64,000 nucleotides of DNA from sequence record OR234014.1; one strand, given 5' to 3'. This document shows positions 865 to 35,479 of this stretch, piece after piece. The stretch is from Staphylococcus phage SAC. Numbering within the stretch: position 1 is the stretch's first letter; each line of letters opens with the position of its first letter. Below the pieces are notes generated by a model. It saw nothing but the letters and a program-made list of their open reading frames with translations. It did no database searches and was not told where the DNA came from. A program made the position numbers and the translations under genes.

Positions 865-1431
865 ATGTATACAAATGAATTTATTAAGAAGGTAAATAAT
901 TTAGGATATGAAACCAGCCTCGCAAATAAAAATACTACCAAGAGAAAAGAAAAAATACTTATTAAAAAAGAAAACCAACAACCTATTGCTTGGGTATTTC
1001 TAAATGAACCATATTCTTTTCGAAGCTTAGGCACAGATAGTGAGTTATTTGATTTAATGGTAGAATATGCAAAAACACCTGTAAAAGAACGTAGTATAAG
1101 CAATATAGCAAAAGTAAAACCTTTAGACTTAGATACCCTTACAGATGACTATGCTAAAGTAAGAGAGTTTATGCTAAAAGTCTTAATAGACATGGAAGAC
1201 GTAGTAGAGTATATTCAGTACACAGGATATAATAAGAATATCATTAATCAATGGACAGATGGTCAGACATTTAGAGCGATAGACAAACAAGGATACAATA
1301 GCCTGTTTATTAATGCAACTTCAGGTATTGAAAAAGTTTTACATGGTAACTATATTATAAAAGATAAAAAGAAAGGTTTCGAACAAGTAGATAGAGAATT
1401 ATTTGAATATAGATATGATATGTCACATTAA
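865..1431 (+). CDS. hypothetical protein
   Basis: 188-aa ORF preceded by a strong RBS AAGGAGGT 7 nt upstream. Confidence 0.5.
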   Translation: MYTNEFIKKVNNLGYETSLANKNTTKRKEKILIKKENQQPIAWVFLNEPYSFRSLGTDSELFDLMVEYAKTPVKERSISNIAKVKPLDLDTLTDDYAKVREFMLKVLIDMEDVVEYIQYTGYNKNIINQWTDGQTFRAIDKQGYNSLFINATSGIEKVLHGNYIIKDKKKGFEQVDRELFEYRYDMSH

Positions 1432-1647: not shown

Positions 1648-1843
1648 CTAATAGTACATAGTATAACTAGTTATTAAAATGGTATACTAAAGAATACCAT
1701 AGAAAACTATATATAAGGAAAGGCTCCTATATACTAAACTACTTATATGCTGTAATATACTAATACTCTAATTAAGTGTAAGGGAAGAGGGGGATATATT
1801 ACTAACTTTATTGTAAAATGAATACAATTAGTTATTAGTAATG

Positions 1844-4583: not shown

Positions 4584-4817
4584 TTAACCTTTTTTAACAA
4601 GTTTTGTTTTTCCATTTTCAAGTGTTAGTTTCACGCATTTGTCTGTTGTTGTAATTTCTTTTACATTGCTATTGTAAAGAGCATGACAAGCTTTATTAAT
4701 ATGATAGTATAAATCATCACATTCTTCCATATCTGACCACAGTCTATAATCATTTGATATAGAACCTTGTGCTTTAATTCTGTTATAAGTTCCTTTAATG
4801 TAATATAAATATTTCAT
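4584..4817 (-). CDS. hypothetical early protein
   Basis: 77 aa. RBS GGAGG lies in the 3' end of the upstream small ORF. Confidence 0.55.
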   Translation of the reverse strand: MKYLYYIKGTYNRIKAQGSISNDYRLWSDMEECDDLYYHINKACHALYNSNVKEITTTDKCVKLTLENGKTKLVKKG

Positions 4818-31615: not shown

Positions 31616-31866
31616 TCCTCAATCCTTTCTATTAAATACCCTACCTTTTCATTTTCCTTATCATTATTAGATAATCCATACTCAACAATTTTATACCTAT
31701 ACATATGCACTAGGTCTTTAATAACATTAATAACCATAATGATATTGACCTTACTTACTGATTTATTATCATACGCAACTGCAATATACTTTTCCTTATT
31801 TTCCATTAATTTTTTAACTTTCAAATGGTCGTTATCTGAAGTTAAGTGTACTGTTTTAATATCCAT
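31612..31866 (-). CDS. hypothetical protein
   Basis: 84-aa ORF. Confidence 0.45.
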   Translation of the reverse strand: MDIKTVHLTSDNDHLKVKKLMENKEKYIAVAYDNKSVSKVNIIMVINVIKDLVHMYRYKIVEYGLSNNDKENEKVGYLIERIED

Positions 31867-31925
31867 ATAGTACCTCCTTTATTAATTCTTGTTTAACTAT
31901 AGCATATAAATAAATATAAGTCAAT

Positions 31926-31955
31926 AAAAAAAAGCCCAACAATTAAGTTGGACTT
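31926..31955 (-). terminator. rho-independent terminator
   Basis: Minus-strand aagtccaac / gttgggctt (one G-U pair) followed by T9. Confidence 0.65.
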
Positions 31956-31962
31956 TAATTTA

Positions 31963-32175
31963 TTATAGCTCACTATGTGGTGCTGTCTTAAATTCAGGTA
32001 CATCTACCTTTTCTGATTCACCAGACTCATTAGAGTATGCTACTTTATAAGTTCCTTTAGGATACGTAGTATCTGCTGTTAAACCACTAATAGAAATAGT
32101 TGTTTTACCTGTTTGTTCAGCAGTCTTAGTACCTACTACTTCACCATCTTTATATACTTTTAGTGTTTTTTCCAT
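31963..32175 (-). CDS. Fn3-like single-domain protein (module 3)
   Basis: 'KVYKDGEVVGTKTAEQTGKTTISISGLTADTTYPKGTYKVAYSNESGESEKVDVPEFKT' parallels the N-terminus of 32192..32704. Strong RBS GGAGGT. Confidence 0.65.
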   Translation of the reverse strand: MEKTLKVYKDGEVVGTKTAEQTGKTTISISGLTADTTYPKGTYKVAYSNESGESEKVDVPEFKTAPHSEL

Positions 32176-32191
32176 TGATTTTTACCTCCGA

Positions 32192-32704
32192 TTATGCTGT
32201 AATATCAGCTGTTGTTTCTTTAGGGTCTACAGTTACATCTGTAGGAGCTTCAGGTACTTTATCTTTAACAACTACAGTTACAGTATCTGTATGATTACCA
32301 TCATCAGTTGTAACAGTGATTGTAGTCTGACCTTTTGCTTTAGCTTCTACTAAACCTTTACTTGATACACTAGCAACATCATCATGTTCTGAAGTAAATG
32401 TATAAGTAGCTTTTGTTGCGTTACTAGGTTCAATCGTAGCTACTAAATTATGTGTTTCTCCTACTTTTAAATCTAGTGTTTCTACATCTAAAGTAACGGA
32501 TGCTACTTTAATGTCCTTAGTCTTAAACGCAGGAACATCTACTTTTTCTGATTCTCCTGATTCATTAGAGAAAGATACTTTATATGTACCTTGTGGGTAG
32601 TCTGTGTTAGCAGTTAAGTTATCAATTGTAATTGATGTTTTACCTGCTTGTTTCTCTTCACTTTTTAATAGCTGGTCACCTTTATATAAATTTAATTTAT
32701 CCAA
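32192..32704 (-). CDS. Fn3-like plus Big_2 (bacterial Ig-like) domain protein (module 2)
   Basis: Big_2-like 'VASVTLDVETLDLKVGETHNLVATIEPSNATKATYTFTSEHDDVASVSSKGLVEAKAKGQTTITVTT'. TTG start with RBS AAAGGA. Ends '...KETTADITA'. Confidence 0.6.
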   Translation of the reverse strand: MDKLNLYKGDQLLKSEEKQAGKTSITIDNLTANTDYPQGTYKVSFSNESGESEKVDVPAFKTKDIKVASVTLDVETLDLKVGETHNLVATIEPSNATKATYTFTSEHDDVASVSSKGLVEAKAKGQTTITVTTDDGNHTDTVTVVVKDKVPEAPTDVTVDPKETTADITA

Positions 32705-32725
32705 ACTAAGTCATCCTTTATATAA

Positions 32726-33358
32726 TTATTCAGCTGTAATATCAGCTGTTGTTTCTTTAGCTGTTACTGTTACATTTTTAGGTACTGAAGGTTCTGAAGT
32801 ATCTCCTTGACCTTCTCCTGAGTCTACTCCTTTAACGTCTTTACGTAGTGGACTAGCAGGAAACTCAGCGCTCACGTCTTCATGAGGTTTCTCATTACTA
32901 TCTACTACTTTTTTAGCATCTTTACTTTCAGCATCAACTAAAGCAAAAACATCCTTCTTGTTATTAGCAAGGAATACATTGTATACTCCAAAGCTGAAAC
33001 GGTCTTCAACGAATGCTAAAAACGCTTGAATTAATTGTTTACCTTTATCTTTACCTTTAATATTTTCAGTTCTAATAAAAGCATGGTTGTAAGGGTCTTT
33101 AACAGTATTAACTACAAAATGAATTTGGTCTCCATCTGTATAAGCAACAGGAGCCTTTTTCATAATTTTAATATTTCCTCTACCATCTGTTTCAATCGGG
33201 TATAAGAATAATTCTCCCTTATTATCTACTACTTTGTAGTTATACTGACCACGGTGTGTACGTGTATAACCATCTTGCTCTACTTGAACTTGTAAATACT
33301 TATCTGCTACAGTAGTGGTATCTTGTTTTAATACTTCATTAATATTTTTCTTAGCCAT
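32726..33358 (-). CDS. protein with unknown N-terminal domain and C-terminal Fn3-start segment (module 1)
   Basis: 210 aa ending '...VTVTAKETTADITAE', the same tail as module 2. RBS GGAG. Confidence 0.6.
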   Translation of the reverse strand: MAKKNINEVLKQDTTTVADKYLQVQVEQDGYTRTHRGQYNYKVVDNKGELFLYPIETDGRGNIKIMKKAPVAYTDGDQIHFVVNTVKDPYNHAFIRTENIKGKDKGKQLIQAFLAFVEDRFSFGVYNVFLANNKKDVFALVDAESKDAKKVVDSNEKPHEDVSAEFPASPLRKDVKGVDSGEGQGDTSEPSVPKNVTVTAKETTADITAE

Positions 33359-33464
33359 AATAATTAAGCTCCAATCATTATTTTTTACATTATAACATAG
33401 AAAAAACCTCCCTATGTTATTATTTTTTTCACTAATAATATAACAAAAGGGAGGCTTATTCAGG

Positions 33465-34124
33465 TTATTCCCACATATGATTTTGCTTATCTACTTTATT
33501 ATCTTTGATATACCTTTTGGCATTTTGTTCATGATAAGCATTAATTTTAAATTTAACATAATCTTTAAGTTCTGTAAGCTCTCTAGCTACTTCTGAACGT
33601 TCTACCTCTAACCTATTAGCTACAGTAGACACAATAAATGCGTTGTCTTCTTTATCCGTATTAATAAGGAGCTCTTTTAGCAGTTCACTTTGTACTTCAG
33701 TAAATTGTGTATCATCAAAGACATAATTAAGTAATTCATTTTCTTCTAATCCCACATTTAACTCCTGTGTTAAGGACTCTACTGTATAATCTGTTTTACC
33801 TACAAGTTCAGTACGTTTATATTTATTGTTCTTCTTAACATAACTGTTCTGTACTCGTAGTGTTAGTTTAGTTTTAATATACCCTGGAAAATCTACTTTA
33901 CTTTGTATATCATACTCCTTAACTAACTTAATAAACTGCTCATCTATGTATTCCCGTAGCTCTTGTTTCTCAAAGTCATGACTCATACCTCTAGAGTACC
34001 TATGAAATAATGACCATCTAAGGTTCTTATACCTTTTTAAAAGCATATCTAAGTCTCTACCAAAGTCAGTAGGAATACCATCTAAGTCTATAATATATCT
34101 ATTCCCATTATTAACTTTCTTCAT
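33465..34124 (-). CDS. RNA polymerase sigma factor (sigma-70 family, phage-encoded)
   Basis: Region 2-like 'FPGYIKTKLTLRVQNSYV' and region 4 HTH 'STVANRLEVERSEVARELTEL'. Start placed at the Met with RBS GAGGGAG (the track ORF starts at 34226 with no RBS). Confidence 0.65.
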   Translation of the reverse strand: MKKVNNGNRYIIDLDGIPTDFGRDLDMLLKRYKNLRWSLFHRYSRGMSHDFEKQELREYIDEQFIKLVKEYDIQSKVDFPGYIKTKLTLRVQNSYVKKNNKYKRTELVGKTDYTVESLTQELNVGLEENELLNYVFDDTQFTEVQSELLKELLINTDKEDNAFIVSTVANRLEVERSEVARELTELKDYVKFKINAYHEQNAKRYIKDNKVDKQNHMWE

Positions 34125-34464
34125 AAGGATGTGCTCCCTCAAATACAATCTTAATCCTGTGTACATCATTTGATACATAGATATCTGAGTAATGTATTGT
34201 TTTAGGTACTTTGACTTCAGAACCATTATAACGTACTAAAGAGTAACCTCCTGCCCATCTTGACTCTACATGCTCAATATACATAACTGTAGAATCAGTG
34301 TAAGGAAATCCCGACTCTTCTACAATGATAGGCTCCTTATTATCTCTAGCTTTTTTAAAACGTTCTGCTATTTCAATATAAGGTAAGGGCAATACATCAT
34401 TTGTATTAGCCCTACCTAATGCTTCTTTAACACTATTAATATTTCTATCTATTAGATTATTCAT
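34111..34464 (-). CDS. hypothetical protein
   Basis: 117-aa ORF. Confidence 0.5.
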   Translation of the reverse strand: MNNLIDRNINSVKEALGRANTNDVLPLPYIEIAERFKKARDNKEPIIVEESGFPYTDSTVMYIEHVESRWAGGYSLVRYNGSEVKVPKTIHYSDIYVSNDVHRIKIVFEGAHPYEES

Positions 34465-35479
34465 TTACATCTTCCTTAGTCTCTTTATTAGTAGAGCTAA
34501 GCTCTTCGTAGTAATCTTGTAATGCTTTAAACTCTTCTAATTGAGTAGTGTCTACTTTTGTATTGTTTAAAGGTGCATACTTATGAGGGAAATTCTCGTG
34601 GTAAACTCTACTAAATAATTCTAAGTATAATTCATGGTTGTCCATTAATGTCGGTACCCAATCTTTATCATATTTTTTAATTTCTTCACCATTTAACGTA
34701 ACATAATTACGCCATGTTCCTTTAGTAATTAAACCACGCTCAACGGCTTCTTTATAGATAGTATGATAAGGGTCAACACCGTTTAATTGAATAGTATCTT
34801 CATCAGAACCTACTTCATAACCTGATAATAAATCAACTTCCGCTTTTTGACCAGGTCTAGATAGCTTAGACTTCTTAGTCTCAATACGCATAACATGACC
34901 TTTATACGTAGGTTTACCTGTCATAGCATCATTCTGTTTTAATTCTGATTCTTTACCTTTAGATACTTTAATACGTAAACTAGCACCATGTTCAAAAGCT
35001 CTTCCTCCTGTAGACTTAATAGGGTCATCATAAGGATTACTCATATTTAAATTATCACGTGCTTGGTTAATAACAATTAATCCTGTATTTGTATCATTAA
35101 GCTTAGGTGAAATAGCATTTACTACTTTTTGTGTACTTGTCGCTTTCGTTCCAAGTTTTTTATGGTCTACTCCTGCATCAATTTCATCTTGTGTACGTGT
35201 AGCTCCTAGGGAATCCCAAATGAACAAAATAGGTACGCCTGGTGCTTTCTCATTAAATGTATCAATCCAGTATTCTAACTCTTTACCTACGGTTTCTACT
35301 GATAGTTCAGTAACATTTTTAAGTCTACCTTCACCTGACTGTATTGAGAACAATTTAGATACGTCTACACCTAACTGTTCCATACGTTGGTTATCCGCTG
35401 TTCCTTCAATGTCAATCCAAACTGTAATAACTCCTAATTGTGTTGCTACTCTAGATAAGTGTACTGCAAAAGTCGATTT
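34457..35479 (-). CDS. RecA/UvsX-like recombinase, exon 2
   Basis: Frame opens at 35479 with 'KSTFAVHLSRVATQLGVITVWIDIEGTADNQRMEQLGVDV...', which matches RecA '[31 protein letters not shown]'. Confidence 0.8.
   Translation of the reverse strand, partial: KSTFAVHLSRVATQLGVITVWIDIEGTADNQRMEQLGVDVSKLFSIQSGEGRLKNVTELSVETVGKELEYWIDTFNEKAPGVPILFIWDSLGATRTQDEIDAGVDHKKLGTKATSTQKVVNAISPKLNDTNTGLIVINQARDNLNMSNPYDDPIKSTGGRAFEHGASLRIKVSKGKESELKQNDAMTGKPTYKGHVMRIETKKSKLSRPGQKAEVDLLSGYEVGSDEDTIQLNGVDPYHTIYKEAVERGLITKGTWRNYVTLNGEEIKKYDKDWVPTLMDNHELYLELFSRVYHENFPHKYAPLNNTKVDTTQLEEFKALQDYYEELSSTNKETKEDVNE

Follow-up and report, generated by a model that had tools for sequence, protein, structure and literature searches.

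Immunoglobulin (Ig)-like domains are common decorations of phage particles, and are usually seen as covalent domains of structural proteins, sometimes added by frameshifting. The locus discussed here lies in a 64,000-nt stretch of Staphylococcus phage SAC (OR234014.1; this whole stretch is hereafter the window), and consists of three small open reading frames (ORF1 to ORF3) between positions 31,963 and 33,358. Its closest described relatives are the head cement protein gp151 of phage 812 (Protein Data Bank (PDB) entries 9rox and 9roz), gp145 of Listeria phage A511, and the 'structural protein with Ig domain' of Enterococcus Kochikohdavirus, which share with it the N-terminal domain of ORF1, the genomic position and a C-terminal Ig-like display. 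In A511 gp145 the N-domain is followed by one Ig-like domain (Big_2), and in the Kochikohdavirus protein by two, in both cases on the same polypeptide. By contrast, the Twortvirinae divide the array over separate polypeptides, and the cut always falls within an Fn3 domain. We propose that the three SAC genes encode separate proteins that would be joined non-covalently by trans-complementation of this split Fn3, a reading to which we assign a probability of roughly 0.6.

Several other described systems resemble parts of this arrangement. T5 pb10 and T4 Hoc, in which an anchor domain carries outward Ig-like modules with a modest, probably adhesive function, follow the same logic of anchor and Ig-like modules, but are single polypeptides without detectable sequence relation to the locus, and we know of no description of split domains in either. 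Frameshift-added Ig-like or Fn3 extensions, as in SPP1 gp17.1*, Listeria PSA Cps and Tsh, and the lactococcal 936 major tail protein (MTP), likewise decorate the capsid or tail, and the siphophage relatives described below resemble them in having a CCC_stop-type site at the 3' end of a major tail or capsid gene. To our knowledge, the shifted frame in those cases encodes the whole added domain, whereas in the relatives described here it would encode only ~20 residues; the rest of the domain opens a separate gene, preceded by a ribosome-binding site of its own, and the window itself needs no frameshift. In SpyTag/SpyCatcher and in engineered split Ig-like domains, a short peptide and a truncated Ig-like domain rebuild one fold, as proposed here, but SpyTag/SpyCatcher was engineered from CnaB2 and forms an isopeptide bond, whereas the present split is natural and has no sequence relation to it, and no sign of a covalent bond was found in it, although no search aimed at one was made. 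Chaperone-usher pili (FimA/PapA) offer a likeness by analogy, involving an incomplete Ig-like fold, a strand on the extension of another subunit, and chains of anchor, extender and terminator. In pilins the lacking strand is the C-terminal G; an N-terminal extension donates it, aided by a chaperone and an usher. By contrast, what is missing in the phage domain is a pair of N-terminal strands (A-B), carried by a C-terminal extension; the fold here is Fn3, no chaperone is evident, and there is no sequence relation.

Two halves of an Fn3-like domain at the gene junctions

ORF1 ends in ...VTVTAKETTADITAE and ORF2 in ...VTVDPKETTADITA, each followed directly by the stop codon, while ORF2 opens with (L/M)DKLNLYKGDQLL... 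and ORF3 with MEKTLKVYKDGEVV... (Table 1). The C-terminal stretches are here termed tags and the N-terminal ones catchers. The relationship between them was studied with a query in which tag 1 was fused to catcher 2 (91 aa), using HMMER against 1.84 billion representative proteins. The matches included ~22 proteins in which the domain is internal, with several alignments continuous over the junction, among them P0144 (query 8-88 to residues 77-154), P0152 (query 7-90 to residues 99-179), P0145 and the 3322-aa P0146, and BLASTP alignments (...ITVIPGSTTANITDNTDRLTSTDDHLNLYDGKGNLIF...) place the junction in the B-C strand loop. In around 30 of the 54 representatives, the match starts only at query position 27-33, corresponding to residues 2-5 of these proteins, which thus open exactly where ORF2 and ORF3 open.

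Assignment of the domain to the Fn3 fold comes from profile and structure comparisons. The Pfam family fn3_2 was matched at E=1.2e-4 and 22.6 bits, under its 27-bit cut-off. A profile search of the PDB, for which a circularly permuted alignment was prepared with each homologue's own tag set before its catcher, returned weak matches to fibronectin Fn3 domains (E=0.006-0.08) in full-length register, with profile positions 49-90 corresponding to residues 53-94 of a 96-residue Fn3, a register that fits the 10th Fn3 of fibronectin. The AlphaFold2 model of the fused tag 1 and catcher 2, computed from an alignment with depth on the catcher only and none on the tag, has a mean pLDDT of 70 and a well formed catcher (pLDDT 80-87), and its best Foldseek matches are nearly all Fn3 domains (E values of at least 0.06). 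Because contiguous homologues align across the junction, and the Fn3 profile register and Foldseek agree with this, although neither of these two strongly, the tag is assigned as strands A-B and the catcher as strands C-G of one Fn3-like domain. A preliminary description of this DNA had already read the first Fn3-like strands at the ends of ORF1 and ORF2 and the rest of the domain at the opening of the next ORF, with which both the sequence and the contiguous homologues agree. Its view of the locus as a modular Ig-like decoration array also stands, since the Fn3 boundary straddles both junctions and ORF1 is homologous to the head cement protein of phage 812. As a side observation, the multi-Fn3 proteins P0144 (residues 1-60) and P0152 (residues 24-82) themselves open with a catcher-like half domain (MTFIIKKGNEEIAK...VQVPEFE), and may likewise dock onto a tag.

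The Fn3 is the only split domain of the locus. Midway along ORF2, at residues 67-144, lies a whole Big_2 domain (PF02368), with a Pfam score of 61.1 bits (cut-off 22.8; E=1e-16). The window contains two tags and two catchers, and a search of it for additional tags or catchers found none beyond these; ORF3 and catcher 2 are 60% identical. The two tag regions share an exact 28-nt repeat, embedded in a 68-nt repeat of 79% identity. A repeated block at both junctions had been noted before as 33 nt long, of which the repeat is confirmed and the exact length is not.

Table 1. Features of the SAC locus and of the siphophage genes compared with it. Window positions are given without prefix; L numbers are our handles for compared loci.
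Feature	Position	Strand	Content and basis
ORF1	33358-32726	minus	210 aa, ATG; predicted N-terminal capsid-binding domain, arm/linker, C-terminal tag
ORF2	32704-32192	minus	170 aa, TTG; catcher 2 (aa 1-62), intact Big_2 (aa 67-144), tag 2 (aa 151-170)
ORF3	32175-31963	minus	70 aa, ATG; catcher only, without tag
Tag 1 (ORF1 residues 190-210, PSVPKNVTVTAKETTADITAE)	32729..32791	minus	Fn3 strands A-B; alignment to contiguous Fn3 homologues
Catcher 2 (ORF2 N-terminus)	32519..32704	minus	Fn3 strands C-G; contiguous homologues, Fn3 profile register, predicted structure
Tag 2 (ORF2 residues 151-170, PEAPTDVTVDPKETTADITA)	32195..32254	minus	tblastn self-match to tag 1
Junction 1 (21-nt spacer)	32705..32725	minus	AAAGGA ribosome-binding site at 32714-32719; in-frame TGA
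Junction 2 (16-nt spacer)	32176..32191	minus	GGAGGT ribosome-binding site at 32184-32189
Putative promoter-like site, 5' of ORF1	33419..33446	minus	consensus scan; matches annotated Romulus promoter (L001 3055-3082)
Intrinsic terminator, 3' of ORF3	31931..31956	minus	scan; corresponds to annotated Romulus terminator
Exact 28-nt repeat, tag 2 copy	32196..32223	+	0 expected by chance (shuffles)
Exact 28-nt repeat, tag 1 copy	32733..32760	+	0 expected by chance (shuffles); substrate of the KSAP7 ORF2 deletion
Metagenomic contigs L014/L015	L014 2820-2900		major tail protein ends ...GEVTP at CCC_TAA; +1 frame: NAPQTIDVVANSRSATLSIQ, then stop
S. aureus phi12 (Triavirus)	L017 ~1690-1780		major tail protein ends ...SLPS, then stop; +1 frame: ANPQNVEVAVNSKSATVSAE, then stop
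Enterococcus phiSHEF2	L019 ~1660-1750		major head protein ends ...TPAP at CCC_TAG; +1 frame: STPPVVGQVTPADTSVSIELS, then stop; followed by a 66-aa catcher-only gene
S. xylosus 40-kb element	L016 ~4630-4710		capsid gene; +1 frame: KPKNVEVVANAKSATISAE, then stop
Lactobacillus iLp84	L020 ~1340-1420		head gene ends ...TTTSK, then stop; -1 frame at A_AAA_TAA: ...APSGVSATPTSDGALITAE, then stop

Conservation in Herelleviridae and counterparts in siphophages

The split Fn3 is shared by several genera. Over the region 31800-33500, the identity of the window reaches 99.9% with Staphylococcus phage Stau2 and 98.6% with Romulus and Remus (Herelleviridae, Twortvirinae, Silviavirus), and 71 of the 72 megablast records span at least 80% of the three-ORF locus. 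The three-ORF layout is also found, with near-equal lengths, in Kayvirus (Clo6, Stab22 and phage 812), Baoshanvirus phiSA_BS2, Sciuriunavirus SscM-2 and the unclassified Fi4S2, while Twort contains a 212-aa ORF1 homologue. The Kayvirus relatives have 73-75% nucleotide identity to the locus, and the lengths of 210, 170 and ~70-78 aa recur in Silviavirus, Kayvirus and Baoshanvirus at nucleotide identities of 73-75% or less.

Each half of the domain is recognizable in the homologues. The tag pattern PxNVxVxPGExxA[DE][IV]xAE is present in 17 of 20 ORF1 homologue clusters. All 32 clusters of ORF3 homologues (70-82 aa) begin at the catcher, as do ~80 related clusters among the 86 of ORF2 homologues (M-x(1-6)-L-x-[LV]-Y), and the PHROG profiles 341, 4178, 29134, 14018 and 37836 start at catcher position 1-4, with phrog_341 matching ORF2 from profile position 2. 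Two C-terminal classes are found among the ORF2 homologues, tag-bearing and tagless (PEPEPE or Thr-rich tails); many have the same C-terminal tag pattern, and many have a catcher without a tag, or two Big_2 domains between the halves. The ORF1 of Fi4S2 contains an additional Big_2 ahead of its tag, and since this domain is intact, the cut is specific to Fn3. A side observation concerns the motif G-V-D-S-G-E-G-Q-G-D-T-S-E-P (window 32792-32833, ORF1 residues ~176-189), which lies directly before the tag and beyond the residues of 9rox; in the ORF1 homologues the mean column identity is 0.79 for this motif, 0.66 for the arm and 0.60 for the tag.

Some phages contain reduced or rearranged versions of the locus. 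In KSAP7 (Silviavirus, LC492751.1; L004 1640-2498), ORF2 is gone entirely and one tag and one catcher are left, ORF1 ending in ...KETTADITA and its stop, followed by junction 2 and ORF3. The deletion end-points, compared with window 32192-32760, lie in the 28-nt tag repeat, and by this comparison KSAP7 lost ORF2 through recombination between the two tag repeats, making it a ready-made natural delta-ORF2 mutant. In SEP1 (L012 2501-3160), a tagged ORF1 stands directly before the terminator, with no adjoining ORF2 or ORF3, and Sepunaviruses contain a lone 92-aa catcher+tag gene, annotated as 'minor tail protein', ~100 kb off in the terminal region (Quidividi, L018 1801-2079). The third gene of SscM-2 (L013 3692-4294; 200 aa) has a divergent N-terminal part ending in ...VDVPGFKT and an additional C-terminal domain, suggesting a module exchange at the position of ORF3. 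Silviavirus and Kayvirus records also give, by tblastn, a third catcher-like match elsewhere in the genome, outside the part corresponding to the window; this match may be a whole Fn3 or one more docking module.

The link to the capsid comes from ORF1. In a phmmer search of the PDB, ORF1 residues 2-175 were matched to residues 1-174 of the 'Putative Ig-like protein' chain of 9rox_A/9roz (E=9.5e-83), and the homologue gp151 in the phage 812 K1/420 record (KJ206563.2) is annotated as 'head cement protein; structural component of the capsid'. ORF1 is also matched by phrog_1240 and phrog_215 (category head and packaging), and its N-terminal domain is present in 554 phage records across Herelleviridae, including Listeria A511 gp145 and Enterococcus and Bacillus phages. 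By homology to the Herelleviridae head cement protein, ORF1 is most probably a capsid protein, its place on the SAC capsid being predicted from that of the homologue. Because the A511 and Enterococcus homologues bear Ig-like domains covalently on the same N-domain, display of Ig-like modules from the capsid is the normal and ancestral role of the cement family, for which the Twortvirinae use separate polypeptides. Enterococcus phage KEN04 contains tandem N-domain paralogues (L006 2495-3457 and 3478-3921), one with two Big_2 domains and the other bare (147 aa). Among the Silviaviruses, the ORF1 homologue of V1SA19 (P0001) is annotated as 249 aa, with 39 residues more at the N-terminus than the 210 aa found elsewhere, probably because of a mis-called start. 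Regarding the virion, gp085 and gp087 are annotated as structural proteins in the Romulus record, and liquid chromatography-tandem mass spectrometry of purified Kayvirus fRuSau02 virions detected the 210-aa ORF1 homologue and the 73-aa ORF3 homologue (RS_159) (PMC5618024).

The locus is part of the late operon, 3' of a sigma-factor gene and 5' of a DNA-repair exonuclease, in agreement with the synteny of its relatives. In Romulus, the counterparts gp085-087 are bounded by promoter and rho-independent terminator annotations, and since a promoter-like site and a terminator flank all three genes in the window as well, ORF1-ORF3 form one operon 3' of the sigma-factor gene. Upstream of the locus in Romulus (L001 1-2044), a RecA-like recombinase gene is broken by an intron-encoded endonuclease; the recombinase region of the window lies at about 34457-35383 and beyond.

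Catcher genes are also found outside the myophages. A tblastn search with the catcher matched 603 phage records (Staphylococcus 498, Enterococcus 96 and Lactobacillus 5), and five siphophage lineages were inspected 5' of the catcher gene. In all five, a tag-like stretch is encoded in another reading frame where a major structural gene ends, overlapping that gene's stop or coming after it, and is itself followed by a stop, a ribosome-binding site and the catcher ATG (Table 1). Two of the lineages have a CCC_stop +1 site (CCC_TAA or CCC_TAG), which is the +1 site type of SPP1 gp17.1* and Listeria PSA. The +1 frame ends in ...VTPADTSVSIELS in phiSHEF2, and the predicted frameshift peptide of phi12 contains ...SLPANPQNVEVAVNSK. 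These frameshifts would give unannotated programmed products, extending only ~20 residues beyond the main product.

Proposed docking of separate proteins and its alternatives

By sequence, ORF2 and ORF3 encode an incomplete Ig-like fold, the lacking strands of which sit on the terminal extension of another polypeptide. In an Fn3 without strands A and B, one sheet is reduced to strand E and the core is exposed, and therefore the catcher should need a partner. In the proposed mechanism, the late operon, with one promoter and one terminator, would give three separately translated virion proteins. ORF1 would serve as anchor, with its N-terminal domain on the capsid and a flexible C-terminal arm ending in the 21-residue tag; ORF2 would be the extender, carrying catcher strands C-G, a whole Big_2 and a second tag; and ORF3, a catcher without tag, would be the cap or chain terminator. 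The tag of one protein would fill in the Fn3 sandwich of the next in trans, producing non-covalent ORF1-ORF2-ORF3 and also ORF1-ORF3 chains, possibly with ORF2 repeats, whose Ig-like modules project from the capsid. Chain length may be limited by the conserved weak TTG start of ORF2 compared with the strong GGAGGT-ATG of ORF3, and the 14-22 nt gaps between the genes may favour pairing, during translation, of products of the same mRNA. Both Silviavirus tags share KETTADITA, and pairing is therefore probably promiscuous in this genus. In siphophages, a frameshift at the gene end would give the tag to a fraction of the major tail or capsid subunits, the catcher gene being next. We infer the docking of tag and catcher, the stoichiometry of the chains and the siphophage frameshifts from these arrangements of genes and domains.

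The best-placed alternative, which we nevertheless consider unlikely, is that the proteins are separate and do not dock through a split domain: the tags would be flexible or vestigial, and the catcher would be self-sufficient on the capsid or tail, or ORF2 and ORF3 would be tail components unrelated to ORF1. A number of points speak for this or weigh against docking. The AlphaFold2 model of tag 1 and catcher 2 forms the catcher well and places the tag poorly, as a low-confidence paired strand A (pLDDT ~50) with no strand B, and the single-sequence model of a tag1+ORF2+ORF3 chain (pLDDT 45) is uninformative. The 9rox chain ends at residue 175, leaving the arm and tag outside it, and the tails are degenerate in three ORF1 homologue clusters. 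The 170-aa ORF2 homologue is not in the fRuSau02 virion proteome table (PMC5618024). The phage 812 record names gp152 'tail protein', and the PHROGs name ORF2 and ORF3 'major tail protein', although these tail names are probably carried over from siphophage neighbours. Finally, the physical binding of tag to catcher is itself inferred, and the siphophage frameshifts are predicted from sequence only. On the other side, absence of docking leaves unexplained why, among myophages as well as in at least five lineages of siphophages, a tag always stands before a catcher gene, with the A-B pattern kept. It would also leave in place an Fn3 with strand E alone in one sheet and an exposed core, and contiguous homologues make both halves one domain.

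Complementation in cis is a second and considerably less probable alternative, in which ORF2 would be circularly permuted, its own tag filling its own catcher, with trans pairing confined to the ORF1 tag and the ORF3 catcher. The presence of both halves on one chain in ORF2 and many of its homologues is consistent with this, as is KSAP7, with ORF1 and ORF3 but without ORF2. It is opposed by the distance between Big_2 and tag 2, which is only ~6 residues: the termini of Ig and Fn3 domains are at opposite ends, so that by fold geometry the tag would have to reach back over two domains. It is also opposed by the many homologues in which a catcher comes without a tag, or in which the halves are separated by two Big_2 domains.

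Recoding, in which readthrough of the junction 1 stop and a +1 frameshift or hopping at junction 2 would yield a fused ORF1-ORF2-ORF3 with an intact Fn3, is less probable still. The preliminary description had called the array possibly recoded, and the features that it listed are indeed present: the junction 1 letters, GAA TAA TTA TAT AAA GGA TGA CTT AGT TTG, keep ORF2 in the frame of ORF1 and contain a TAA stop, a TGA stop and a duplicate 'LYKG', and at junction 2, ORF3 is +1 relative to ORF2 and 3' of a strong GGAGGT. The repeated TTATATAAAGG at junction 1 resembles take-off and landing sites, siphophage relatives seem to add the tag by such shifts, and programmed frameshifts reportedly often append Ig-like domains to the structural proteins of phages (Fraser et al. 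2006).

Against this stands a junction table over seven phages. At junction 1, the gaps are 21, 21, 22, 18, 68 and 16 nt and the offsets 0, 0, +1, 0, +2 and +1; the window, Clo6 and Baoshanvirus share an offset of 0, phage 812 (gap 22, not 21) and SscM-2 one of +1, and Fi4S2 (gap 68) has +2, so that the frame differs even within Kayvirus (Clo6 0, phage 812 +1). At junction 2, the offsets are +1, +2, +2, +1, +1 and +2, depending on the genus. A conserved frame relation between the ORFs was thus not found across these relatives at either junction. All junctions in the seven phages have a stop, a normally spaced Shine-Dalgarno sequence and an ATG or TTG start, with gaps of 14-68 nt, and the downstream ORFs begin 2-5 residues ahead of strand C in ~110 clusters. 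The arrangement GAATAA..AAAGGATG..N7..TTG is kept in Kayvirus and Baoshanvirus, with varying gap length and frame. Because the offsets vary and each downstream ORF has its own initiation signals, a conserved mechanism of readthrough, frameshifting or hopping finds no support, and because the frame relation is variable, the double stop in frame and the LYKG duplication count as local accidents. In the window, the first 'LYKG' coincides in part with the AAAGGA ribosome-binding site of ORF2, and Kayvirus lacks this 'LYKG'. The repeated TTATATAAAGG is restricted to Silviavirus, and matching take-off and landing codons are absent. Readthrough would also have to pass two in-frame stops, and the base after the ORF1 and ORF2 stop codons is T in both, UAAU being a strong termination context in bacteria. 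Homologues carry the same stops, and the available virion lists give separate small proteins. Readthrough, bypass and frameshifting at the window junctions were accordingly set aside; the three genes are most probably translated separately, and a recoding label for these therapeutic phage genomes would be a wrong annotation.

A decaying or mis-sequenced single gene, whether a pseudogenised Ig-like array or an assembly error, has a negligible probability: stops do lie within a domain and an exact 28-nt repeat could mislead assembly, but the stops, starts, lengths and tag pattern are conserved across genera, the locus recurs in nearly all megablast records, tags and catchers are conserved and products are detected in virions. 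Decay is refuted by this conservation, and the earlier wording of a 'recently' modular, 'decaying' array is not supported, the split being kept in Silviavirus, Kayvirus, Baoshanvirus, Sciuriunavirus, Twort and Fi4S2, and catcher genes being present in unrelated siphophages.

Meaning for phage decorations

Parts of the picture are already known: the genes are annotated in dozens of genomes, and the capsid role of ORF1 is in the public record and a PDB entry. In the searchable literature, no account was found of an Fn3 cut at the B-C loop across genes, of its conservation, or of tag-only frameshifts; the paper belonging to 9rox/9roz, which was not found, might touch on it, and the phage 812 neck paper is about other proteins, gp164 and gp56.

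Taken more widely, the locus may belong to a natural and widespread tag/catcher system in Firmicutes phages, a generalization for which we see about even odds. In such a system, an Fn3 domain is encoded in two pieces, and a tagged structural protein would recruit exchangeable Ig-like modules post-translationally, the tag being constitutive on the cement protein of myophages and frameshift-added in siphophages. Modules with two halves could polymerise, and catcher-only proteins could act as caps.

If docking of separate proteins is true, the split Fn3 as a connector would be a new assembly principle, allowing post-translational modular docking of decorations. Hundreds of small genes named 'major tail protein' or 'Ig-like' in Staphylococcus, Enterococcus and Lactobacillus phages would then be misnamed fragments, and the ~20-residue length of the siphophage frameshift extensions would be accounted for. 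The peptide and domain could also form a natural pair for attaching cargo to therapeutic Staphylococcus phages (Kayvirus and Silviavirus), with their capsid genes unedited. For the phages themselves, the assembly of these decorations would be an analogue of donor-strand complementation in pili.

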